Assembly (NCBI GenBank): GCA_007117735.1
Contig: SKGA01000002.1
Coordinates: 1 to 42,744, forward strand
DNA from: Candidatus Woesearchaeota archaeon
Lineage (GTDB): Archaea; Nanobdellota; Nanobdellia; Woesearchaeales; SKGA01
Length of the DNA stretch: 42,744 nucleotides
Direction: 5' to 3'
A program made the translations under genes and the position numbers. Of this stretch, positions 57 to 12,181 are shown in pieces. The notes under the pieces are model-generated. The model had not been told where the DNA came from. It made no database searches and saw only the letters and a program-made list of their open reading frames with translations. The stretch's first letter is position 1. Every line of letters starts with the position of its first letter.

Positions 57-127
57 TGCACCGGCCGGGATTTGAACCCGGACCGACGGCTTGGAAGGCC
101 GCAATCCTACCATTAGACTACCGGTGC
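57..127 (-). tRNA. tRNA-Gly(TCC)
   Basis: Reverse complement GCACCGG...GGTTCAAATCC...CCGGTGC-A folds as a cloverleaf; anticodon arm GCGGC-CT-TCC-AA-GCCGT; no encoded CCA. Confidence 0.95.
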
Positions 128-234
128 TAGTAAACAAAAGAAAGCAGAACTTTATTTATAAACATTATGTTTCTTTTTCTTTCTTAAACCATTTTTCGAA
201 TAAACTTTATATATTACTGCTTTTTAGAGACAGT

Positions 235-885
235 ATGAATATTCTTGTTGTTGTTGCACATAGCGATGATCAAATATTGGGGGTTGGCGGAACTATTGCT
301 CGCTATCTTGATCAAGGTCATACGGTGAAAACAATAATTTGTACTGATGGCGAGCTTACTCATCCTCATTTTAAAAAAGAAGTTATTAAAGATATTCGAA
401 GAAAAGAGAGTGAAAAAGCTGATGAGTTCTTAGGTGGGGATGGTGTCTTGTTTATGGGTCTTAGTGAGGGAAAACTTATTTCTCTTCTAAAAAAGAAAAC
501 TCCTCCTCCTTTTCTTGCAGATATGCTCTCTTCATTCAAACCAGATTTGATTTTTACTCATGCGCTTGATGAAGCTCATCCTGAGCATATTGCAGTGGCT
601 CAATATGTTTTATCTACTTATGATTCTGCACCTGCTTCTCTTAAGAAAAAATTAGCAGTGTATAGCTTTGGTGTTTGGCGGCTTGTTAAATGGAAACAAC
701 GAAACACTCCTCGAATGGTTGTTGATATCTCTTCCTATTTTACAAAAAAAATTCAGGCAATTCGTCTGTTTAAAAGTCAAAAATTAGCAATGTTTACTTT
801 AATTGCTTCAGTTTATATTAAAGCGATAACTAGCGGTTTTCGTTATCAAAAAAACTTTGTGGAGGTTTTTTATAAATTACGATGA
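235..885 (+). CDS. PIG-L/LmbE (BshB/MshB-like) family N-acetyl sugar deacetylase
   Basis: MNILVVVAHSDDQ..GVGGTIA, TDGE, R..E and HPEH motifs. Start moved to ATG 235 (TATA-like TTTATATA about 23 nt upstream); the track start overlaps the tRNA. Confidence 0.85.
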   Translation: MNILVVVAHSDDQILGVGGTIARYLDQGHTVKTIICTDGELTHPHFKKEVIKDIRRKESEKADEFLGGDGVLFMGLSEGKLISLLKKKTPPPFLADMLSSFKPDLIFTHALDEAHPEHIAVAQYVLSTYDSAPASLKKKLAVYSFGVWRLVKWKQRNTPRMVVDISSYFTKKIQAIRLFKSQKLAMFTLIASVYIKAITSGFRYQKNFVEVFYKLR

Positions 886-2030
886 AAAAACAACGTTTAC
901 TTATTGCAACGGATACCTTTCTTCCTCGAAAAGATGGCGTTTCTCGTTTTCTTCAAGGATTGCTTCCTCTTCTTACACAACATTTTGAAGTTACTCTTGT
1001 TTGTCCACATCATCAACACATTCCTCCTTTTCAAGATGTCACTATTAAAACAATCAAAAATACCTCTTTTAAGATAAATGATATGTTTATTCCTTATTTT
1101 TCTTATTTTACTATTCGAAAATTGGTTAAACAATCAGATATTGTCTTTACACAAACTCTTGGTCCTATAGGTGCGAGTGCTTTACTTTCTGGTCGTTATG
1201 CTCGAAAAAAGGTTGTTAGTTTTGTTCACAGTTTAGACTGGGAGCTTGCTAAACGTTCGTTGAGTACTTCTTGGTTTAGAAAACCCTTTTATTTTTTTGC
1301 AAAATGGTTTGCAAAATTTTGTTACTCTCGATCATCGCATCTTATTGTTCCTTCAGAATCAATAGGAGATATTTTTACTTGGAAAAAGATTTATACTCCT
1401 CGCTCAATTGTTCATTTAGGAGTTCAAACTTCCAAATTTCAACCTTCTTCCTCTGAGAAAGTTAGAGAGTTGAAACAGCGTTTAGGAATTTCTCTTGCAG
1501 ATACTGTTATAGGTTATCACGGAAGAATTTCTCCAGAAAAGGATCTTCCTACTCTTGTTCGTGCATTTATTACGTTAAGAAAAAAATATCCTCATGTAAA
1601 GTTATTGCTACTTGGAAGCGGAGTAGCTTCTTTAGAAAAACAATTAAAAAAACATAAAGGGGTCATTCTTCATCCTGCAGTCTCTCATGTTCAAGATTTT
1701 CTTTCCTGTATGGATATGTATGTGCTTCCTTCACTAACAGAAACTACTTCTTTATCGGTTCTTGAAGCAATGGCGATGGGATTGCCTGTTGTTTCAACAC
1801 CTGTTGGTTTTGTTAAGGATTATATTCGTTCAGGAAAAAATGGTTTGTTTATGAAACCTTCGCAAAGTCGTTCGTTAGTATATCAACTTGAAAAGTATTT
1901 AAAGGATGATTCTTTTCGAAAACAGGTTGGTGCGCAAGCAAGAAAAACGGTCAATGAACGATTTGATTGGGATCGTAGTGCGAAGGAATTAGTAGAGGTG
2001 TTACTCAATTTTGAAAAGAAAAATCATTAA
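882..2030 (+). CDS. GT4 family glycosyltransferase
   Basis: DTFLPRKDGV N-terminus, GRISPEKD, LPSLTETTSLSVLEAMAMGLPVV (EX7E motif); ATGA overlap with upstream gene. Confidence 0.9.
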   Translation: MKKQRLLIATDTFLPRKDGVSRFLQGLLPLLTQHFEVTLVCPHHQHIPPFQDVTIKTIKNTSFKINDMFIPYFSYFTIRKLVKQSDIVFTQTLGPIGASALLSGRYARKKVVSFVHSLDWELAKRSLSTSWFRKPFYFFAKWFAKFCYSRSSHLIVPSESIGDIFTWKKIYTPRSIVHLGVQTSKFQPSSSEKVRELKQRLGISLADTVIGYHGRISPEKDLPTLVRAFITLRKKYPHVKLLLLGSGVASLEKQLKKHKGVILHPAVSHVQDFLSCMDMYVLPSLTETTSLSVLEAMAMGLPVVSTPVGFVKDYIRSGKNGLFMKPSQSRSLVYQLEKYLKDDSFRKQVGAQARKTVNERFDWDRSAKELVEVLLNFEKKNH

Positions 2031-2919
2031 ATTAGCGGAGAAAACATTAGTTGTTTCTCTTCCCTCATCTTATATTAAAGATTTTCATTTAGAAAAAGGT
2101 GCAGAGCTAGACGTATCTTTTCAAGACTCTTCTATTATTTTCTCTCCTGAATTACTTGTTCAGCCTAAAAAGACTTATGAGTTAGATGCAAAAGGTTTAT
2201 CGGAGAGGAGTTTACGTTGGATTATTTCTAGTCTTCATAAACAAGGTTATGATCAAATTATTGTTCTTCACTACACTGATGAACAACATGCTCTTCTTGA
2301 AGAATTATCTACTTCTCTTTTTATTGGCTTTATTATTAAAGAAAAGACTTCTCTTCGAATTGTTTTAGGAGAAGTTGCAAGTATTTCTCCTGATGAGTTT
2401 GACCGAACGTTTCGAAGAAGTTTTCATCATGCAAAAGATCAGTTTTCTCTTTTTCTTGAGGCTGTTGAACAAAAAGATGTTTCTTTATTTTCTCAGTTGA
2501 TTGCTGGAGAGAAAGAAAATAATAAACTTACTAATTTTTGTGAACGATTACTTAATAAAGATCTTTTTCGAAAAGAAAAAGGACATTTTTGGTATGTTCT
2601 TATTTGGAACCTTGAAAAACTTGTTGATTCGTTAAAATATATTGCTCTTCAAGAACAATTTCCTGAAGATGAGCAAACAACTCTTCTTGTTGAACAAGTT
2701 GTTTCTTTTGTTCATACGTATTTAGATTTAATTTTTTCATTTTCCTTGGAAAAGCTTTCGGAACTTTCTTTAGAAAAGAAAACTCTTGAGAAAGAAATTC
2801 TTTCCTCTTTTCACATTGATTCTGTCTATAAGCATTTTTTACATATGATTCTTTTACAATGTGCTGATTTTTCAGCATCGACACTCGCTATCCAAGAGGT
2901 GGTTGGTAATTCAATTTAA
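2011..2919 (+). CDS. AbrB-PhoU archaeal phosphate uptake regulator family protein
   Basis: N-terminal AbrB-like KRKIIKLAEKTLVVSLP..KGAEL; PhoU-like NKLTNFCER and NLEKLVD; TTG start with GAGGTG upstream. Confidence 0.75.
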   Translation: MKRKIIKLAEKTLVVSLPSSYIKDFHLEKGAELDVSFQDSSIIFSPELLVQPKKTYELDAKGLSERSLRWIISSLHKQGYDQIIVLHYTDEQHALLEELSTSLFIGFIIKEKTSLRIVLGEVASISPDEFDRTFRRSFHHAKDQFSLFLEAVEQKDVSLFSQLIAGEKENNKLTNFCERLLNKDLFRKEKGHFWYVLIWNLEKLVDSLKYIALQEQFPEDEQTTLLVEQVVSFVHTYLDLIFSFSLEKLSELSLEKKTLEKEILSSFHIDSVYKHFLHMILLQCADFSASTLAIQEVVGNSI

Positions 2920-5098
2920 TGCTGATGGATCTTTGGCTGTAAAAAAATCAGTGCCTCGAGATCATATTCAACTCTTTGCTCTTCTTAAAGAACTTTCTTT
3001 TCCGGTAGGAAAAAAACTATTTGTTCAATTACTTCGAGGTGAAAAAAATGCTCGAATTTCTCGACTTCAGTTAGATAAAAACGCTCATTTTGGTTGTTTA
3101 GGAGGGTATCAAGAGGAAGAATTGAATACGTTTCTTGATTTTCTTTTAGGTAAAGAATTTTTAGTGATTCAAAAACATCAAGGTAGATATCCTGTCCTTC
3201 ATTTAACTTCAAAAGGTGAGAAAGAGTTTGTTGATCGTGAGCATTCCTATAAAGTTGATGAGGTTGAATTATCGTTTCAGGCACCTTCATTGCATCAGTA
3301 CGCGGTCACACCTATTACCTCAGAACACCAGTCTCTTATGGATGTGCATGCAGATTTTCTTCAACGATTTACTGTGGAACAACAACAAGCAATTGTTGCT
3401 CTTGAAGCAAAACAACTTTGTATTGCGGGAGCGGGGAGCGGGAAAACAAGTGTTCTCACTCATAAAATTGCTTATTTAGTTAAATTTTGTAATGTTTCTC
3501 CTTCAGAAATCCTTGCGATTACGTTTACTCGAAAAGCGAAACAAGAAATGAAACATCGTCTTGAACAGTTACTGGGCTCTTCTTCTGTTCGTATTGAAAC
3601 GTTCAATAGTTTTGCTGAGAAAGAACTCCTTGCTAAAGGATTTCAATTATATGGGAAAGAAAAACAGATGGCTTCTTCTAAAGAGTTTGTTCGAATTGTT
3701 ATTTCTTCTTTACAAAAACTCGGTCAGTCTGTTGACACTTTTATGAGGCAATACTTTACAAGTAAAGAACAGAAAGGGAAAGAACCTCGAGAACTTTTTT
3801 TTAGTTTTTTATATGATTTTCGAGCAATTTTTGACGGGTATGTCCAACAACCCTCTTTTAAAGAATATATTCCTATTTTAGATAAGGCTCCTCTTACTGA
3901 AAAAATTGTTGCGACTACTATTCTTAAACTCTGCGAGGAGGTCTATCAAGCACTTCACGAGCAAGGTCTTCGAACGTATAGTAATCAATTAGTTGATGTA
4001 ACTGCTTTATATGAACAGTATCCTTCTTCTCGTCGAAATTACAAGTGGATTTTAGTTGATGAGTATCAGGATGTCAATGTTTTACAAGTACAGTTATTAG
4101 AGCAACTTGCTCCTTCTCATCTTTTTGTAGTGGGTGATCCTCGACAAAGTATTTATGCGTGGAGGGGAAGTGATCCTGAAATGATTTATCGATTTATCGC
4201 TCCTGAAACAGCAGTTTTTGAACTAACAACTAATTTTCGAAGTACTTCTCAGGTTGTTTCCTTAGCAAATGAGCTTATTAGTAATTCCTTTAAAGGTCAT
4301 AATAGTTTTGCTCCAATGACGGCGTTTGACACGAGAACAGGTCTTGTTTCCTTAGTGCGTTTTGCTACCGAGCAGACGGAAGCTATTGCGGTTGTTAGTC
4401 AGATTAAGGAATTGGCAGTGGCGAGAAATGACATTTTTGTACTTGCACGAACTAATAAAGCTCTTGATAAAATCCAGGAACAACTTGCTCGTGAACAGAT
4501 CGATTTTGTTGTTCGTACAGAAGAGAAGAAATCTGTTGATATTTCTCAACAAAAAGATAAGGTTGTACTCTCAACAGTTCATGCTGCCAAGGGTTTGGAG
4601 GCAGAAATTGTCTTTTTAGTAGGTGTTACGATGAATTTGTACCCTTGTAAGGCAAAAGATCATAGATTTGTTACGTTATTATCTACTAAGGATGATTATG
4701 ATTCTTATGAGGAAGAGCGAAGAATTTTATATGTTGCTTGTACTCGGGCTAAAAAAGAACTTCGAATGAGTTATGCTGGTTCACCTTCTCCTTTTTTTGC
4801 ACAGAATGTGCTTTCTTGTTGCACACACCGTGTTCAGGAACAACAGACTCGTATTTTTCAATCGTCTGCGCAGCGAGAGGATGTTGTTGAACAACAACGT
4901 CAAGCTCTTCGAAGATGGAGATATTTAGAAGCTCAAGAACGAGGAGTTCCTGCATACATGATTTTTAGCGATCGGGCTCTTGACCATTTATTAGAATTAC
5001 AACCGCTCACGGTTGAAGAATTAGAAGAGGTCAGCGGTTTTGGGAAAACAAAAATTGCGGAGTTTGGCAAGGATATTCTTCATATCATGTATCGTTAG
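2903..5098 (+). CDS. UvrD/Rep/PcrA-type SF1 DNA helicase with N-terminal RQC and C-terminal HRDC domains
   Basis: AGAGSGKT, ITFTRKA, LVDEYQD, VGDPRQSIYAWRG, NFRS, STVHAAKGLE, EEERRILYVACTRAK; start uncertain (GTG 2861 or TTG 2903). Confidence 0.9.
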   Translation: MVIQFNADGSLAVKKSVPRDHIQLFALLKELSFPVGKKLFVQLLRGEKNARISRLQLDKNAHFGCLGGYQEEELNTFLDFLLGKEFLVIQKHQGRYPVLHLTSKGEKEFVDREHSYKVDEVELSFQAPSLHQYAVTPITSEHQSLMDVHADFLQRFTVEQQQAIVALEAKQLCIAGAGSGKTSVLTHKIAYLVKFCNVSPSEILAITFTRKAKQEMKHRLEQLLGSSSVRIETFNSFAEKELLAKGFQLYGKEKQMASSKEFVRIVISSLQKLGQSVDTFMRQYFTSKEQKGKEPRELFFSFLYDFRAIFDGYVQQPSFKEYIPILDKAPLTEKIVATTILKLCEEVYQALHEQGLRTYSNQLVDVTALYEQYPSSRRNYKWILVDEYQDVNVLQVQLLEQLAPSHLFVVGDPRQSIYAWRGSDPEMIYRFIAPETAVFELTTNFRSTSQVVSLANELISNSFKGHNSFAPMTAFDTRTGLVSLVRFATEQTEAIAVVSQIKELAVARNDIFVLARTNKALDKIQEQLAREQIDFVVRTEEKKSVDISQQKDKVVLSTVHAAKGLEAEIVFLVGVTMNLYPCKAKDHRFVTLLSTKDDYDSYEEERRILYVACTRAKKELRMSYAGSPSPFFAQNVLSCCTHRVQEQQTRIFQSSAQREDVVEQQRQALRRWRYLEAQERGVPAYMIFSDRALDHLLELQPLTVEELEEVSGFGKTKIAEFGKDILHIMYR

Positions 5099-5378
5099 AC
5101 TTTTTCTCAATTTTGTGTTTTTGAAAGAAATACAACATGCAGTCAACCCCGTCAAATGTCACTTTCTTTCTTAAGTCTGCATTTCCAAATTCTACATACC
5201 AACCTGCTGCTTCTTGTACGGCACTGTTGCATACAGGGCACAGAGTGATATTTTCTCTTTTTTTTCGTTGAATTTCTTGCGTAATGACTTTTTGTAAGTT
5301 GCCTTTTTTGAGATCTTTTTCAATTAATCGAATATCTTCGATTGGGAGCTCTTCTATCCATTGTGCTAATTTATTCAT
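5085..5378 (-). CDS. Small hypothetical protein with CxxC..FDxxxC metal-binding (TRASH/YHS-like) motif
   Basis: CPVC...KVTFDGVDCMLYF; start moved to MNKLAQW, directly after the upstream regulator. Confidence 0.65.
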   Translation of the reverse strand: MNKLAQWIEELPIEDIRLIEKDLKKGNLQKVITQEIQRKKRENITLCPVCNSAVQEAAGWYVEFGNADLRKKVTFDGVDCMLYFFQKHKIEKKSNDT

Positions 5379-5385
5379 GTTTTTT

Positions 5386-6024
5386 TTACCTTTCCAATTC
5401 TTCAAATACACGCTCTTTTTGGAATAGTATGGTGTAGCTTTTTAATAAGTCTACATAATACTGGTCGTTTCTTTCTTTCCCCTCTTTAATTTCGTTACTT
5501 GTATGTACCCAACAATTTACTTCTTGACTGTTTTGGTGAAATGAACTGATTTCTTTTCGGTAGAATTCTAATTGTTCGGGCGTGGTAATTGCAATAAGTT
5601 CAATAGTTTTTTCTGTTGTTTTTAGTAGGGCAAACCCTTCTAGTTTCTCTAGTAAGTCTTTTTTTGTCCAAAAATAGGTTGATAATATATCGTGATGATT
5701 GGGAATTGTTGTTAATACTTGTAAGTATAGTTGTGTTAGGGGCGTGCTTGTTGCGAGGTTTGTTTGTTTGCAGGTAGTATTTGTTATGTGTATAAGTTGG
5801 ATGATTGGTTTAGCAATTTCGTATTTTTTTGCAGGTTTTCCTACTTTTTGTTCGGTAGATGTTGTCTGTTTAATAATTTCTTTTGCTTCTAAGAGTTTTA
5901 TTTGATTGAGAACGTATGGTAGGCTGACGTTTGTCGCCTTTGCAATTGCTGAAGCACTCGCTGGTTGTTTACTAATTTCTTTTAGTACTTGCATTCGAGA
6001 GGGGGTGAAAAATGTTAGCTCCAT
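5386..6024 (-). CDS. ArsR-like winged-helix regulator with degenerate nucleotidyltransferase-like C-terminal domain
   Basis: SRMQVLKEIS..SASAIAKATNVSLPYVLNQIKLLE HTH and GKPAKKYEI wing. Confidence 0.75.
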   Translation of the reverse strand: MELTFFTPSRMQVLKEISKQPASASAIAKATNVSLPYVLNQIKLLEAKEIIKQTTSTEQKVGKPAKKYEIAKPIIQLIHITNTTCKQTNLATSTPLTQLYLQVLTTIPNHHDILSTYFWTKKDLLEKLEGFALLKTTEKTIELIAITTPEQLEFYRKEISSFHQNSQEVNCWVHTSNEIKEGKERNDQYYVDLLKSYTILFQKERVFEELER

Positions 6025-6190: not shown

Positions 6191-7471
6191 GTGAAAGTGC
6201 TAATGTTTGGGTGGGAATTTCCTCCATACTTTGCAGGCGGCGTTGGAATGGTGTGTTATGAATTAACAAAACAGTTATCTTCTCTTGGAGTTGAAATTAA
6301 ATATGTTATGCCTTATGCTCCAGAAACCTTGCAAAGTGACTTTCTTCAATTAGTGGATGTATCTCGAAATGTTGATACAACTCAAAATTTAGAAACATAT
6401 CAACATCTTTCTGTGACCAAAGTTCAAGGTTTGTTAACCGCATACCAAACACAGGATGAATATTTCTTACAAAAATCTTTACTTGAGCAGCGTTCTTCTA
6501 CTCTTTCGCGACCTGCCCTTCGAGATAATACTCGAAAGTTGTACGGGGATAATCTTTTAGAAGAAATGGATTTATTCAGTCAACGAGTTGCTTACTTATA
6601 CGATCAAGGACATTTTAGAGATTTTCAAGTCATTCATGCGCATGATTGGACAACTGTTCCTGCAGCAACTGTTGTGAAACGAAAATCAGGAAAACCTCTT
6701 CTTATTCACGTACATATTACAGAATTTGACAAAAATGGGGGTGCGGGAGCGAATCCTCAAATATATGAAATTGAGAGACAAGGATTTTTTGCGGCAGACG
6801 AAATATTGACAGTAAGTCAGAAAATCAAAGATACTTTAGTTTCTCATTACGGAATTGATCCTCAAAAGATTGAAGTAGTACATAATGGAAATGTAAAAAT
6901 GAACCCTGTTGTACATGCAGGAGAAGAATTTAAACAAGGACATAAAGTTGTTTCTTATCTTGGACGTGTAACTACGCAAAAAGGTCCCGAACATTTTGTG
7001 GAAATGGCTGCTCTTGTTCTCCAACATTATCCTAAAACAAAGTTTGTTATGGGTGGAACGGGTGACAAATTACAATCTTGTATTGACCGCGCTAAACAAC
7101 TTGGAATTTATGATAATTTTTATTTTCACGGGTTTTATACTCGAGAAGATGCGGACTTTTTTTATGATGTCAGCGATGTTTTTGTACTTCCAAGTCTTAG
7201 CGAACCATTTGGAGTAACTCCTTTAGAGGCGATGTGTAAGGATACGCCAACTATTGTAACAAAGCAATCAGGGGTTTCGGAAGTTCTTAAACATGTTTTT
7301 AAAGTAGATTGGTGGGATGTGCAGAAAATGGCCAGTCAAGTACTTCATTTATTAGTTAATCCGACGTTACATGGTTTGTTAAAAAAGAAAGGTAAGCAAG
7401 AAGCAGAATCTCTAGATTGGCAAAAACCTGCAAAAAAATGTATGGCTCTTTATCAGGAGGTGTCTTCGTAA
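6191..7471 (+). CDS. GT4 glycosyltransferase of the glycogen-cluster type
   Basis: MKVLMFGWEFPP, IHAHDW, GRVTTQKGPE, EPFGVTPLEAM; GTG start with GGGGTGA SD. Confidence 0.9.
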   Translation: MKVLMFGWEFPPYFAGGVGMVCYELTKQLSSLGVEIKYVMPYAPETLQSDFLQLVDVSRNVDTTQNLETYQHLSVTKVQGLLTAYQTQDEYFLQKSLLEQRSSTLSRPALRDNTRKLYGDNLLEEMDLFSQRVAYLYDQGHFRDFQVIHAHDWTTVPAATVVKRKSGKPLLIHVHITEFDKNGGAGANPQIYEIERQGFFAADEILTVSQKIKDTLVSHYGIDPQKIEVVHNGNVKMNPVVHAGEEFKQGHKVVSYLGRVTTQKGPEHFVEMAALVLQHYPKTKFVMGGTGDKLQSCIDRAKQLGIYDNFYFHGFYTREDADFFYDVSDVFVLPSLSEPFGVTPLEAMCKDTPTIVTKQSGVSEVLKHVFKVDWWDVQKMASQVLHLLVNPTLHGLLKKKGKQEAESLDWQKPAKKCMALYQEVSS

Positions 7472-8244
7472 TGAAAGTAATTTCTGTGGATGTTCCCGTC
7501 ATTCTTGCACCGTTTCATGTTTTTCAGATAGGAAGCAACCAATCCTATCTTAATCAAGGTCATATGGATCATTGCACCAGGGAAGAGGTGGTCAAACAAT
7601 TAGAAACACTTTGTTCTCTGAGGTTAACTGAAGATGTAGCATTTTGTTTCTCAGGTCCTCTCCTTTCATTTTTAGAAGAAGAACGGCCAGATCTTCTTGA
7701 ACAACTTAATACATTTATCTCTTCACATTCTCGTGCTCATCTCGCTCTACAACCTTATTATACGACGTATCAAACCTTATTTTCAGACTCCACTACTTAT
7801 ATTCGACAACATGCGGCATTACTTGATAAACATTTTTCAAAAACGCCAACTTATTTTGTAGGGGGAGAACACGACTCTTTACCTTCTGTTTCTTCAACTT
7901 CTTCACTTTCTGCTTTCTTATCGCAACAAGAAGAACACTTTTCATTCTCAAGCGAATTACAAACTCATATTCTTGACGAGCTACACTCGCTTGCACCGCA
8001 CGTGTTTGCAACAGAAGATCAAGAACTTATTTCTTCATTCTTACATCTTTCCTCTCCTTCTTTACTTCATCATATGCATCCTGATCATTCAAACGATCCT
8101 TATGATGCGTATACTGCTCATTTATCTATATTACACGATATCACACATCGAATTTTAGTTGCAAAACAATTAGAGAAAGGTATTATTTCTCAGGAAATTC
8201 CTTCTCTTCATCATTCCCCTTCATCGTATTTGTCCAAATTATAA
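7471..8244 (+). CDS. Shortened, degenerate GH57 (alpha-amylase-type) protein
   Basis: FCFSGPLLSFLEEERPDLL, QPYY, F.KTPTYFVGGE and C-terminal DPYDAY..LSILHDI resemble GH57 blocks; the central region is missing; TAATG coupling. Confidence 0.6.
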   Translation: MKVISVDVPVILAPFHVFQIGSNQSYLNQGHMDHCTREEVVKQLETLCSLRLTEDVAFCFSGPLLSFLEEERPDLLEQLNTFISSHSRAHLALQPYYTTYQTLFSDSTTYIRQHAALLDKHFSKTPTYFVGGEHDSLPSVSSTSSLSAFLSQQEEHFSFSSELQTHILDELHSLAPHVFATEDQELISSFLHLSSPSLLHHMHPDHSNDPYDAYTAHLSILHDITHRILVAKQLEKGIISQEIPSLHHSPSSYLSKL

Positions 8245-8261
8245 AAAAGAGGTGACTACTT

Positions 8262-8615
8262 ATGCCGCGAGCAAAGAAAACAACGACAACAAAGAAAGCC
8301 ACAAAAAAATCAACAACGACTCGAAAAAAAACTCGAACAGTCAGAAAAAAGAAGGTTTTCAAAAGAACTGAATTTCCCTTTAAATTAGTAAATGGTGAAG
8401 AGTTAACTCATTTTATTGATTTAGCAGAGAAATTAGCAGATATTGAATCTTATGTTCTTCAACATCATATTGTCGATGACAGACATGATTTTGCTCAATG
8501 GATTCATGATGTATTTGAAGATAAAGAACTAGCAAAAGCTCTTGAGAATAAAAAAGATCCTCAAGAAATGAGACTTATTATTTATCGACACATAGTGCAT
8601 AAATATTTGGAGTAG
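8262..8615 (+). CDS. DUF5752-like small protein with a Lys/Thr-rich N-terminal tail
   Basis: FKLVNG..L..L...HH....HDFAQWIHDVFEDKELA motif; GAGGTGA SD. Confidence 0.7.
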   Translation: MPRAKKTTTTKKATKKSTTTRKKTRTVRKKKVFKRTEFPFKLVNGEELTHFIDLAEKLADIESYVLQHHIVDDRHDFAQWIHDVFEDKELAKALENKKDPQEMRLIIYRHIVHKYLE

Positions 8616-10382
8616 ATGTATATGGAACTACAACATACTCCCGATATTCTTTTTGAGTCAAGTTGGGAAATTTGCAATAAAGTTGGTGGTATTTATACAG
8701 TTATTACTTCAAAAATTCCAGTTTTGAAAAATCTTGTTTCTGAATATTGTTCTATAGGTCCTCTTTTTGACTCTTTACCTGAAGAATTTACTTCTCAACA
8801 ACCTTCTTCTGAATTACAATCTATTTTTGACATGTTATCTCATGAAGGGATTCGATGTGTTTATGGAGTATGGGATGTAGTAGGAACTCCTTGTATTCTT
8901 ATAGACGGGAGATCTCTTTTCGTACATGCTAACGATATTAAAAAGTTTCTTTGGGAACAGTATGGTGTTGATTCTTTACATTCAGCATATGATTTTAATG
9001 AACCTCTAGTATGGTCTTGGGCAGTTGGTAAATTTATTGATTTGTATCAGAAACAAGCTCCTGATAAAACTGTTTTAGGTCATTTTCATGAATGGCTAGC
9101 GGCTTTCTCAGTATTCTATTTAGATAGTGTTTCTTCTTCTGTTTCAACAGTTTTTACAACACATGCGACGATGCTTGGTCGGACACTTTGTTCACATGGC
9201 AAGCTTGATTATGATAATTTTTCAGTTGACAACCCTGAAGCACTAGCGAGAGAATATGGCGTAGTGGATAAGTTCTCAACAGAACGAGCTGGAGCAAAGT
9301 TTGCTGATGGTTTTAGCACTGTTTCTGACATTACTGCAAAAGAATGCGAAGTGTTTTTTGGTGTTCATCCACACGTTACTCCAAACGGGTTACCTATAAA
9401 TCTTTATCCTTCATTTGAAGAAATGAGTGTTCAACATTTAAAATATCAAGAAAAAATACATGAGTATTTATTGGCTCACTTTTTTCCATATCAGTCATTT
9501 GATCTTAATGATACTCTATGCTTCTTTTATGGGGGTAGATATGAGTTTTTGAATAAAGGTGTGGATATAATGGTTGATGCTCTAGCTCAATTAAATGATC
9601 ATCTTAAGGTCATTAACTCTTCTAAAACTGTTGTTATGTTCTTTTTAGTTGCCGTACCTGGTACTCGTCCCAAAGAACAACTCGTTACTGAACGAAAAAA
9701 TGTTGAGAGAATAATTGATTCTGTCCATGAAAAGAACGACTTTTTTATGCAAAGACTCATTTTAGATGTGTTATTAGGTGAAGAACAAACAACACCTGTT
9801 TATCCGCCTGGTTTTGTAGAGCATTTGCGAAAGATTTTTCAAGTATCTTCATCACAAAACCCTCCTTTATGCACTCATGAGATTGATGAACTGAATGACC
9901 CGACATTACATCGTTTACATGAGCGAGGCTTAGTAAATAATCCCGATGATAAGGTAAAAATAGTTTTCATGCCTGCATATTTAGATGGAAATGACGGATT
10001 AGTAGATATTCCTTATGAAGAGTTTATTTCAGGTTGTCATTTAGGAGTCTTTCCAAGTTTTTATGAGCCGTGGGGGTATACTCCTTTAGAAAGTGTTGCG
10101 CTAGCAGTACCTGCAGTGACTACTTTTACCGCTGGTTTTGGAAAACATATTTCTGAGAAAACATCTCAGAATCATCCTGGGTTGTATGTGTTAAAACGTA
10201 GTCTTTCCTATCCTTCAACAACACAAGATTTATTTGCAGTTTTTAAAGAATTTGTCTCGCTTTCTTCAAAGCAACGATCTACGTTAAGACTTCAAGCACA
10301 ACAACTCTCTGAGTTAGCAGATTGGAATGTTCTTATTAAAGAATATCAAACGTTATACGCGAAGGTTTTGTCTAAAAAATGA
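8616..10382 (+). CDS. Glycogen synthase, GT3 family (eukaryote-type)
   Basis: FESSWEICNKVGGIYTV, HFHEW, FTTHATMLGR, GRYEFLNKG, GVFPSFYEPWGYTPLE. Confidence 0.93.
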   Translation: MYMELQHTPDILFESSWEICNKVGGIYTVITSKIPVLKNLVSEYCSIGPLFDSLPEEFTSQQPSSELQSIFDMLSHEGIRCVYGVWDVVGTPCILIDGRSLFVHANDIKKFLWEQYGVDSLHSAYDFNEPLVWSWAVGKFIDLYQKQAPDKTVLGHFHEWLAAFSVFYLDSVSSSVSTVFTTHATMLGRTLCSHGKLDYDNFSVDNPEALAREYGVVDKFSTERAGAKFADGFSTVSDITAKECEVFFGVHPHVTPNGLPINLYPSFEEMSVQHLKYQEKIHEYLLAHFFPYQSFDLNDTLCFFYGGRYEFLNKGVDIMVDALAQLNDHLKVINSSKTVVMFFLVAVPGTRPKEQLVTERKNVERIIDSVHEKNDFFMQRLILDVLLGEEQTTPVYPPGFVEHLRKIFQVSSSQNPPLCTHEIDELNDPTLHRLHERGLVNNPDDKVKIVFMPAYLDGNDGLVDIPYEEFISGCHLGVFPSFYEPWGYTPLESVALAVPAVTTFTAGFGKHISEKTSQNHPGLYVLKRSLSYPSTTQDLFAVFKEFVSLSSKQRSTLRLQAQQLSELADWNVLIKEYQTLYAKVLSKK

Positions 10383-12181
10383 AAACAACTTACTCTTTTT
10401 TTGATTTAACTTTAGATGAAGAATCTACGGGAGCGAGTGTTCTAACAAATGGTTTTGGTGATTTCTTTGTTCTTGATCCGACTTGTAGTTATGAAGGTTG
10501 GTTTCATCTAGAAACGAATCCTTGGAAACTTCGTAAAAGTATCGCTCGAATTAAACCTGAAGGTCTTGAACAATCATCGTTTCATGTTCAACCACATTCT
10601 TTACAACGAACGTATACTGACGGATCTTCAGATTCATTTATATTATATCAAGATACTCTTCTCTATTATACAAAAAATATTTCTCAACCAATTCTTCTTA
10701 CTTTGGATTCTCGAGAAGCATACGATAATTCTCCTTTAGGTAGGGAATACGCTATTTATGAGAAAGAAGGGTGCTGGTTTATTTATTTCAAACAAGGAGA
10801 TATTGAGGAATTTCTTTGTTTGAAGGGAGTTGAAGATGTGCGATTACGAGAACAGTGGAGAGAAGAACACTATTCCTTTGATGCATCTCGAGGCGTTGCT
10901 GACACGTTTTGGGTGTTTGACGCATTTACCTTTCATTCAACAGGACATACTGTTATTGGCAGAGGAACTACAGAAAGTCAAGCTCGGACGAAAACAGATA
11001 TTTCCTCGCACCATTATCATGATGTCATTTCAGCATTACAATCTAAAGTTGCAACGTATCAAGATTTGCCAGGAGCAACTCTTCGAGAGCAACTTGCGTT
11101 TGTTTATGCACAACACGGTTTATATTCATTAAAAACAGATTGTCGATATCAACATACTCTTTTAACAGGAATATATGCAGGACTTCCTTGGTTTTTTCAA
11201 TTATGGGGCAGGGATGAATTAATATCTTTAGGGGGATTCTTAGCGGCTGAAGATTTTTCAATTGTTGAAGAGATACTTGAGCGGTATACGCAACAAGTGC
11301 TCTTATTAGAAGAAGTTCCTAACCGCTTTCCACCTTCAGTTGTTGCAAGTGTAGATGGTCTTGGGTGGTATGCAAAACGACTTCACGAATATATTCGTAC
11401 ACGATTAGCAAAAAACCCTCGCGAGTTTAGTAGAGAAGAACTTCAGCGGTGGCATACTGCTTTGCAACGAGCATACCAAAAAGTAGAACGCACTCGTATG
11501 CGAGAAGGACTCGTTTTTAATTATGCGCAAGAAACATGGATGGATACTGTTTATGAAGACTCAGGCCGAGAAGGATTTTGTGTAGAAATTCAAGCATTAC
11601 ACTTGGCTTTAATTGACGCTATTCTTTATTTAGAGCGATTACTAGATTTACCTTTTTCTATTTCTCGAGATGATTTTATATTTACTGTTCGAAAACATTT
11701 TATTCGTTCTCATCGAATTATAGATATGCTCTTTCCTTCTTTAGAGCCAGACATGTCTTATCGACCAAATCTTTTTCTTGCACAGTATATTTCTCCTACT
11801 CTTTTTTTAAAAGAGGACTGGAAACAAACTTTCAAGTATGCTCTTGATAAGTTATTTCTTTCTTGGGGTGGATTAAGCACTCTTTCCTTAGATCATCCTC
11901 TGTATCAACCGAAGTATACAGGTAATAATAATAAAAGTTATCATCGAGGAGATAGTTGGTATTTTGTAAATAATATTGCTGCAATAAGCTTATTTGAGTA
12001 TTCGTTTCAAAAAGAAGCAAAAGCTATACTTGATGCCAGTATTCAAGAATTATTCTCTCTAGGGTTTGCAGGTTGTAGTGCCGAGGTTTCTAGCGCATCT
12101 TTACAAGAAGGAACGGGAAGTCTTTCTCAAGCGTGGAGTAGTAGTACATTAATAGAATTATTAAAGAAAAGCAAACGCTAA
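10379..12181 (+). CDS. Amylo-alpha-1,6-glucosidase (glycogen debranching enzyme, GH133-like)
   Basis: IYAGLPWFFQLWGRDELISL, TWMD, VEIQAL, RPN, YHRGDSW, QAWS. Confidence 0.9.
   Translation: MKTTYSFFDLTLDEESTGASVLTNGFGDFFVLDPTCSYEGWFHLETNPWKLRKSIARIKPEGLEQSSFHVQPHSLQRTYTDGSSDSFILYQDTLLYYTKNISQPILLTLDSREAYDNSPLGREYAIYEKEGCWFIYFKQGDIEEFLCLKGVEDVRLREQWREEHYSFDASRGVADTFWVFDAFTFHSTGHTVIGRGTTESQARTKTDISSHHYHDVISALQSKVATYQDLPGATLREQLAFVYAQHGLYSLKTDCRYQHTLLTGIYAGLPWFFQLWGRDELISLGGFLAAEDFSIVEEILERYTQQVLLLEEVPNRFPPSVVASVDGLGWYAKRLHEYIRTRLAKNPREFSREELQRWHTALQRAYQKVERTRMREGLVFNYAQETWMDTVYEDSGREGFCVEIQALHLALIDAILYLERLLDLPFSISRDDFIFTVRKHFIRSHRIIDMLFPSLEPDMSYRPNLFLAQYISPTLFLKEDWKQTFKYALDKLFLSWGGLSTLSLDHPLYQPKYTGNNNKSYHRGDSWYFVNNIAAISLFEYSFQKEAKAILDASIQELFSLGFAGCSAEVSSASLQEGTGSLSQAWSSSTLIELLKKSKR

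Follow-up and report, generated by a model that had tools for sequence, protein, structure and literature searches.

A DPANN archaeal helicase of the UvrD type that lacks subdomain 2B and the 2A pin and carries RecQ-type RQC and HRDC domains

The element that unpairs duplex DNA lies inside subdomain 2A in UvrD and Hel308, and outside the motor in RecQ helicases, as has been argued for WRN and BLM (PMC4212688). In UvrD, Tyr621 on the 2A β-hairpin stacks on the last base pair (PMC4212688), and deletion of this hairpin nearly abolished unwinding by the Deinococcus radiodurans enzyme (PMC3797037). Subdomain 2B, whose GIG motif binds duplex DNA (PMC3797037), is autoinhibitory, and its deletion activates the Rep monomer (PMC8872793). 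Among RecQ proteins, Phe1037 and Met1038 at the wing tip of WRN split the duplex (PMC4212688), and RECQ1 carries an aromatic residue, Tyr564, at the same tip (PMC3061051). The only characterised architecture that joins a UvrD motor to an HRDC domain is that of mycobacterial UvrD2 (superfamily 1 [SF1] motor, tetracysteine module and HRDC), and it is the closest to the family described here. UvrD2 is an active monomeric 3′-to-5′ helicase whose CxxC-(14)-CxxC module sits between the motor and the HRDC domain (PMC11975281). Here we describe a helicase gene of a Candidatus Woesearchaeota archaeon (assembly GCA_007117735.1), found in a stretch of 42,744 nucleotides of contig SKGA01000002.1 that is called the window below, whose product places an RQC domain before, and an HRDC domain after, a reduced SF1A motor.

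The helicase gene runs from window position 2903 to 5098 on the + strand and is a single intact open frame, encoding 731 residues from TTG 2903. The analysis confirms an architecture in which RQC precedes an SF1A motor devoid of 2B and HRDC follows it. The features that the argument requires are as follows.

2903..5098, + strand: the whole gene; a UvrD-like SF1A motor that lacks 2B and pin, preceded by RQC and followed by HRDC (open frame and Pfam)
2972..3262, + strand: RQC winged-helix domain, residues 24-120 (Pfam, fold and profile match to WRN RQC)
3161..3205, + strand: RQC β-wing, with tip residue Y96 opposite WRN Phe1037 (DSSP of the models; alignment to 3aaf and 9hzg)
3263..3352, + strand: linker between RQC and motor, residues 121-150, of low confidence, with 121-135 poorly conserved (predicted local distance difference test [pLDDT] and alignments)
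3353..4801, + strand: SF1A motor (1A, 1B and 2A), residues 151-633 (Pfam, invariant columns and fold)
Motor motifs, by residue: I, AGAGSGKT 175-182; II, DEYQD 386-390; III, GDPRQSIYAWRG 411-422; IV, RTN 516-518; V, TVHAAKGLE 558-566; VI, YVACTRA 610-616
4514..4570, + strand: short connector, residues 538-556, in place of the ~160-residue 2B with its GIG motif in UvrD/PcrA/Rep
4640..4708, + strand: family-specific insertion between motifs V and VI, YPCKAKDH..., residues 580-602
4775..4792, + strand: site of the deleted 2A pin, YA-GS-PSPF, residues 624-631 (alignment to Escherichia coli UvrD)
4898..5086, + strand: HRDC, residues 666-728, tethered by the low-confidence linker 641-660 (Pfam and structure matches)

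Each of the three parts is recognised by Pfam. The RQC model matches residues 24-120 (E 1.2e-11; 44.8 bits against a cut-off of 23), UvrD-helicase matches residues 158-431 (E 5.5e-52), UvrD_C is found at E 3.2e-35, and HRDC spans residues 666-728 (E 2.4e-17; 63.1 bits against a cut-off of 23.8). An earlier note on this DNA had read the N-terminal ~110 residues as RQC, the C-terminus as HRDC, and the core as an SF1A motor with about 40 residues between VLARTN and STVHAAKGLE and with 2B essentially deleted, and the analysis bears out all of these assignments. The spacer between the two strings counts 38 residues, and all eight of the strings that had been quoted are present: VQLLRGEKN (residues 41-49), HFGCLGGY (62-69), GRYPVL (94-99), VLARTN (513-518), STVHAAKGLE (557-566), LRRWR (669-673), AQERGVPAYMIFSDRAL (677-693) and VSGFGKTKIAEFGKDIL (710-726).

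NCBIfam returns 25 matches to the helicase, and none reaches its curated cut-off. The equivalog models score 222.6 against 911.2 for PcrA and 181.5 against 951 for Rep, two UvrD models reach 204.2 against 965 and 187.4 against 1144, and RQC_minor_1 reaches 34.6 against 115. The model TIGR01389 covers residues 635-728 only (65.8 bits against 640.2), and TIGR00614 is not among the matches. No curated NCBIfam model for an RQC-UvrD-HRDC architecture was found, and no description of the combination (UvrD with RQC and HRDC in archaea or DPANN) was found in the full-text literature searched, a coverage to which subscription journals and supplements do not belong. The earlier note had likewise not recognised it as a characterised arrangement.

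A full-length AlphaFold2 model, computed with 54 relatives as input, has a mean pLDDT of 89.3 and a predicted template modelling score (pTM) of 0.74. Low-confidence linkers occur at residues 121-130 (pLDDT 63), 541-550 and 641-660 (pLDDT 58 and 49). In the fold comparison program VIA, model residues 150-649 align with residues 7-660 of D. radiodurans UvrD (4c30_D; Z 40.5, root-mean-square deviation [rmsd] 2.4 Å), with 452 residues matched of the 642 in that chain. UvrD, PcrA and Rep structures are also the first Foldseek matches, at about 1e-27 (2is4, E 1.1e-27), and phmmer aligns the protein to PcrA with E 2.4e-45. All helicase motifs are invariant across the 54 relatives. Judged by these motifs, the motor is a catalytically intact SF1A engine composed of 1A, 1B and 2A.

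The N-terminal 150 residues were also modelled apart with AlphaFold2, using 11 locus-translated sequences, and gave a pLDDT of about 88 over residues 20-110. When this model was compared by VIA-align with 48,161 chains, with no Foldseek prefilter, the best match was the WRN RQC-DNA complex 3aaf (Z 13.8, rmsd 2.0, 102 of 109 residues), followed by WRN 6yhr (Z 12.9) and then D. radiodurans RecQ 4q47 (Z 12.2). Ordinary winged helices of the MarR, PadR and viral types rank lower, with Z at most 10.1. Foldseek gives a similar picture, with RecQ or WRN accounting for 8 of the 11 first listed matches. A profile of the family N-terminus also matches the WRN RQC sequence directly (E 7.4e-6, residues 965-1067 of full-length WRN). 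Counted residue by residue along this alignment, the conserved aromatic Y96 pairs with residue 92 of chain 3aaf_A, the position of WRN Phe1037. Among 54 relatives this column holds Y in 30, F in 7, W in 4, M in 6, L in 5 and A in 1, such that the wing tip is aromatic in 41 of 54 and M or L in 11 more. At the other end of the protein, the RecQ HRDC structures 2ma1, 1wud and 2rhf match the HRDC domain at 8.7e-8 to 1.7e-5.

The first of two deletions in the motor removes subdomain 2B. The phmmer alignment to PcrA leaps from query 537 and PcrA 380 to query 541 and PcrA 546, leaving PcrA residues 381-545 without a counterpart. With E. coli uvrD (L099:3984-6146) as the reference for spacings, by pairwise alignment, the motif IV Arg and the motif V His are 44 residues apart in the helicase and 205 apart in E. 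coli UvrD (Arg355 and His560), and the GIG motif of the latter (417-419) falls within the gap. All 119 database relatives show a similarly short spacing, of 39-47 residues.

The second deletion removes the β-hairpin of 2A that serves as the separation pin, and it had not been part of the earlier reading of the sequence. After motif VI, E. coli UvrD continues with T613-Y614-A615, then 13 residues (E616-R628) that include L620-Y621-G622-K623, and then P629-S630-R631-F632. The helicase instead reads S623-Y624-A625-G626-S627-P628-S629-P630-F631, in which 2 residues stand in place of the 13. From the motif VI Arg to the Phe of the PSxF segment there are 16-17 residues in 115 of 119 relatives (the other 4 were unmapped), compared with 27 in E. 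coli. The AlphaFold2 model agrees, in that no two-stranded hairpin is present after strand 616-625. Taken together, the alignments show a motor devoid of both duplex-handling elements of UvrD/PcrA/Rep, namely 2B (GIG clamp and autoinhibition or dimerisation switch) and the 2A pin. In most members, flexible linkers attach RQC and HRDC to its two ends.

Bacterial relatives mostly retain these parts. Most of the 59 bacterial relatives measured have a motif IV-V spacing of about 190-205 residues, as would be expected if 2B were present. Some rows of that measurement were mis-anchored (values of 354-633 or 39-64), and 13 sequences were hence read directly by eye. The hairpin segment is complete in 11 of the 13, shortened (23 residues) in L051 and absent from L041. 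The last of these, a 1075-residue SF1 protein from a metagenome-assembled genome of Clostridia, is missing the pin hairpin as in the archaeal family and retains the long motif IV-V spacing.

The archaeal family also has a private insertion between motifs V and VI (residues 580-602), in which P581 is invariant and C582 and H587 are nearly so. This segment may be another place at which the protein contacts DNA or wedges it open.

By its sequence, the helicase belongs to a “mini-UvrD” enzyme family that is conserved in Nanobdellota (DPANN). Its best 120 database relatives are 34-100% identical and 474-1030 residues long, mostly 680-760; HRDC is present in all 120 and RQC in 106, and the named relatives are Woesearchaeota, Nanoarchaeota or Nanobdellota. 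Among the best 80 loci in species-representative genomes, 19 are from DPANN archaea, 18 of them matching from residue 21 or earlier, and the other 61 are bacterial, with matches that begin at residue 109 or beyond. Within a phylum sample of 301 genomes, in which a strong match was taken as E 1e-66 or better, the helicase occurs in 66 (the unpublished genome G243 included) and in 11 of 11 genomes of its own taxonomic family. According to matched range, 56 of these 66 carriers have both RQC and HRDC, 6 have no HRDC, 2 have no RQC, 1 has neither and 1 is ambiguous. These shorter natural forms come from the genome-sample searches rather than from the database relative set. In the genome under study (690,413 bp in 50 contigs, 97.8% complete), the helicase gene is the sole match to PF00580 and the sole match to RQC.

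The mechanism that we favor, at what we consider an even chance, is that the protein acts as a de-repressed repair translocase or helicase that would use RecQ-type modules to handle DNA. Its motor would be an ATP-driven 3′-to-5′ translocase on single-stranded DNA (ssDNA). Because 2B is absent, the enzyme should be free of the autoinhibition and the dimer switch of Rep and UvrD (see PMC8872793), and would have no need of dimerisation. Because the pin and the GIG clamp are absent as well, another means to hold and split the duplex would be needed, and the aromatic wing of the RQC domain is the obvious candidate. The β-wing, with Y96 at its tip, would take over recognition of duplex ends and branch points and probably would also wedge the strands apart, and HRDC would add auxiliary DNA binding. 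In the cell, the protein would probably serve DNA repair in general, as a helicase or as a translocase, and its tasks would include turnover after incision by UvrABC in excision repair, since this is the sole UvrD-family enzyme in a 0.69-Mb genome with UvrA, UvrB, UvrC and a photolyase, and with no RecQ.

This proposal has a stronger form, in which the protein would be a “RecQ-ised” SF1A helicase, its pin and 2B replaced by a detachable RecQ-type β-wing, and would work as a constitutively active monomer. The wing would be a wedge inserted into forks and Holliday junctions, convergent with the unpairing module of WRN and BLM on a motor of another superfamily. We regard this stronger form as rather unlikely, and give the same tentative standing to its central element, the idea that the RQC wing is the functional wedge of the helicase.

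Several observations weigh against the proposal, and most of them bear on the wedge. Polarity, helicase activity and substrate are inferred for every family member. The placement of RQC relative to the DNA path is conjectural; docking of RQC (residues 1-125) onto the motor (138-645) scored 0.00 against a mark of 0.32, was run without controls, and carries no weight either way. Three carriers without RQC (G134, G256 and G271) are also without the pin, and an RQC domain was not found anywhere in these genomes, which are 92-97% complete; their motors must therefore do something without an RQC wedge. Natural forms that lack both RQC and the pin include the 570-residue protein of L183. HRDC is missing in 6 of the 66 carriers. 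The β-wing of bacterial RecQ is seemingly not required for unwinding (PMC4212688), so that the presence of RQC does not by itself imply a wedge. Regarding the repair role, 34 of the 66 carriers have no UvrB, so excision repair cannot be the whole of it, and the Fisher p-value for the association with UvrB overstates that association because related genomes are not independent. Finally, translocation may be the main activity of the bare motor. By analogy with mycobacterial UvrD1, such a motor would still suffice for excision repair, given that in mycobacteria this pathway requires the ATPase of UvrD1 and not unwinding (PMC11975281).

The most likely of the rival explanations is one that we judge to be possible although a clear minority view. 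Here a UvrABC system of bacterial type would have been acquired laterally and the protein would simply be its UvrD, which as a translocase would remove UvrB, UvrC and the excised oligonucleotide, with RQC and HRDC serving as tethers only and no wedge involved. The genome encodes UvrB (962 bits), UvrC (479 bits) and, at a contig end, the first 51 residues of UvrA, alongside the helicase as its only PF00580 gene. Across the phylum sample the two genes also tend to occur together: UvrB occurs in 58 of the 301, and the helicase is present in 32 of these 58 and in 34 of the 243 UvrB-negative genomes (both 32, helicase only 34, UvrB only 26, neither 209; odds ratio 7.6, or 6.0 leaving out its own family). 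The ATPase-only requirement for UvrD1 in mycobacteria and the natural variants without pin and RQC fit this explanation as well. Set against it are the 34 carriers without UvrB, the 26 UvrB-positive genomes without the family, and the position of the helicase gene, which lies on contig C21 whereas uvrB and uvrC lie on C29. Moreover, mere tethering would leave the conserved aromatic at the wing tip unexplained.

The earlier note had raised the possibility that the protein is a RecQ substitute. In archaea devoid of RecQ, such an enzyme would act on forks, D-loops, G-quadruplexes and Holliday junctions. The joint presence of RQC and HRDC, the signature accessory modules of RecQ, speaks for this proposal, as does a putative unpairing element that is separate from the motor, an arrangement argued for WRN and BLM. 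In addition, RecQ was not found in this genome, where TIGR00614 has its best match (81 bits; cut-off 219.8) in a DEAD-box protein. The sample of genomes does not bear the idea out, however. RecQ occurs in only 8 of the 301 genomes, one of which also has the helicase, and 228 have neither; with RecQ so rare, no usable anti-correlation with the helicase can be drawn, and the co-occurrence that is seen is with UvrB instead. The genome also encodes a Hef-like helicase-nuclease and Hel308, and the helicase has no conserved partner gene beyond family-level synteny. We therefore consider a RecQ replacement improbable. The Hel308 gene itself is apparently split over two contigs, at L006:439-1995 (− strand; G000:C38:11118-12629) and at G000:C27:32141-32806 (+ strand). 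Against the PRK02362 model, the 222-residue frame covers positions 5-225 and the 518-residue open reading frame (ORF) covers positions 221-710.

Still less probable, and held by us at a low level, is a protein-displacing translocase in the manner of PcrA, UvrD and Srs2, which would strip RadA or stalled complexes from ssDNA and unwind no duplex. An intact set of motor motifs in a protein that has lost both duplex-handling parts is what such an enzyme would show. UvrD-family monomers are described as translocases (PMC8872793), and UvrD2 as essential through its ATPase activity rather than its unwinding (PMC11975281). This explanation nevertheless offers no account of a conserved, duplex-end-binding RQC domain with an aromatic wing tip, and nothing points to an interaction with RadA.

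A role in anti-virus defence as a component of a Gabija (GajB)-type system is rejected as scarcely credible, for although PADLOC GajB models reach 213.8 bits and GajB structures match at E 4e-18, these matches are confined to the generic UvrD motor, the adjacent partner GajA (an OLD-family ATPase-nuclease) was not found beside the helicase, housekeeping synteny around the gene is conserved at 10 of 10 own-family loci, and none of the best 80 viral-contig matches spans RQC (24-120) or HRDC, the earliest beginning at residue 88.

The start of the helicase gene is uncertain and may differ from TTG 2903 in either direction. An in-frame GTG at 2861 is an alternative that gives 745 residues. Relatives start with MQFN, which aligns with the IQFN of this gene at ATT 2909, another candidate start. 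One sequence feature bears on the choice.

2894..2902, + strand: Shine-Dalgarno-like AAGAGGTGG, which abuts TTG 2903 (read from the sequence)

The spacing of this element would suit a start at 2909 better than TTG 2903, and the true start is ambiguous by two to sixteen codons. The upstream 302-residue ORF (orf302, 2011-2919, + strand) overlaps the helicase start by 17 nt. Residues 1-19 of the helicase (window 2903-2960, + strand) contain an FNxDGSL motif that is kept in closer relatives and is modelled as a small β-hairpin. The motif is missing in more distant members, whose matches begin near residue 19.

The neighbors of the helicase gene are a PIG-L deacetylase, a glycosyltransferase of family 4 (GT4), the PhoU-like orf302, a small ORF with a helix-turn-helix (HTH) protein on the opposite strand, and glycogen genes; genes for aIF5A, Nop5 and fibrillarin are also nearby in the window and agree with an archaeal source, as do the named relatives of the helicase. 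Synteny is seen within the organism's own family only, where the 108-residue ORF (dn108) is kept at 10 of 10 loci and orf302 lies beside the helicase at 5 of 10. The two loci of family f7 have no neighbor in common. A tblastn search with six window neighbors against 19 distant DPANN loci found PIG-L and GT4 in L019 and PIG-L in L008 only, and gave no match for orf302, dn108 or the HTH protein. Thus, no partner gene is indicated for the helicase.

Further observations concern these neighbors individually. The 302-residue ORF has no Pfam, NCBIfam or PADLOC match and resembles archaeal clusters of AbrB/MazE-plus-PhoU-like “phosphate uptake regulator” proteins in the ESM Atlas (score 0.96, TM 0.88-0.91). 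The PIG-L and GT4 pair occupies window 91-2030 (+ strand) and is also found near the helicase at L019:8789-10527, in a different order, where the helicase relative is only 36% identical. On the − strand at 5085-6024 is the pair formed by the 108-residue ORF, which belongs to no family, and a 212-residue winged-HTH protein with weak CasR/Csa3-like and MreA-like matches; at own-family loci the former is present in 10 of 10 and the latter in 9 of 10. A glycogen-metabolism cluster follows at 6191-12181 (+ strand), in a DPANN genome of 0.69 Mb, and comprises a GT4/GT5-type synthase, a protein like those of glycoside hydrolase family 57 (GH57), a 117-residue ORF, a glycogen synthase and an amylo-α-1,6-glucosidase. 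Elsewhere in the genome (G000:C24), the photolyase gene and one for a 385-residue RNase D-like protein lie side by side (the two at L100:1742-2899, − strand, and L100:2918-4000, + strand). The RNase D-like protein combines a DEDD 3′-5′ exonuclease with HRDC, the only other HRDC in the genome, and scores 149.7 bits with TIGR01388, which is under the cut-off.

Textbook accounts of UvrD, PcrA and Rep feature regulation by 2B and the use of the 2A pin for unwinding, and here a conserved natural lineage has dropped both and has gained two RecQ accessory domains. If the RQC wing is indeed a wedge, then helicases of different superfamilies would be able to exchange their unpairing module. A natural, compact and non-autoinhibited SF1A motor, if this is what the family provides, would be of interest both for helicase mechanism and for motor-protein applications. 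The case also bears on how ultra-small DPANN genomes, of 0.69 Mb here, manage excision repair and recombination with very few helicases.

Compared with UvrD, PcrA and Rep, the family shares the motor fold and all of motifs I-VI, including Ia and II (DExQ). It differs in being without 2B and the 2A β-hairpin pin, in having a larger 1B with a conserved LFFSFxYDF insertion, and in carrying HRDC in place of the C-terminal Tudor-like tail, with RQC added at the N-terminus. The scores of the helicase also fall far under the NCBIfam equivalog cut-offs.

With mycobacterial UvrD2, the helicase shares an SF1A motor followed by a C-terminal HRDC, and clusters of UvrD2 are among its nearest non-archaeal neighbors by language-model features. 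The tetracysteine module is a point of difference, because the helicase contains no CxxC and two CxxC motifs are found in 0 of 121 family proteins. As described, UvrD2 is without RQC, a comparison made by published description and not by sequence.

The resemblance to the RecQ family (E. coli RecQ, WRN, BLM and RECQ1) consists of the RQC winged helix with its wing-tip aromatic aligned to WRN Phe1037, the RecQ-like HRDC matched by TIGR01389, and a putative unpairing element apart from the motor. The motors differ, being SF1A in the helicase and superfamily 2 (SF2) DEAH in RecQ, and the helicase has no zinc-binding subdomain. The order differs as well, with RQC preceding the motor in the helicase and following it in RecQ.

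A further parallel is Rep that has been engineered to be without 2B or has been cross-linked, in that both are SF1A motors without a functional autoinhibitory 2B (PMC8872793). In the available portion of that source the Rep construct is not described as pin-less, whereas the deletion in the archaeal family is natural, conserved, and coupled to loss of the pin.

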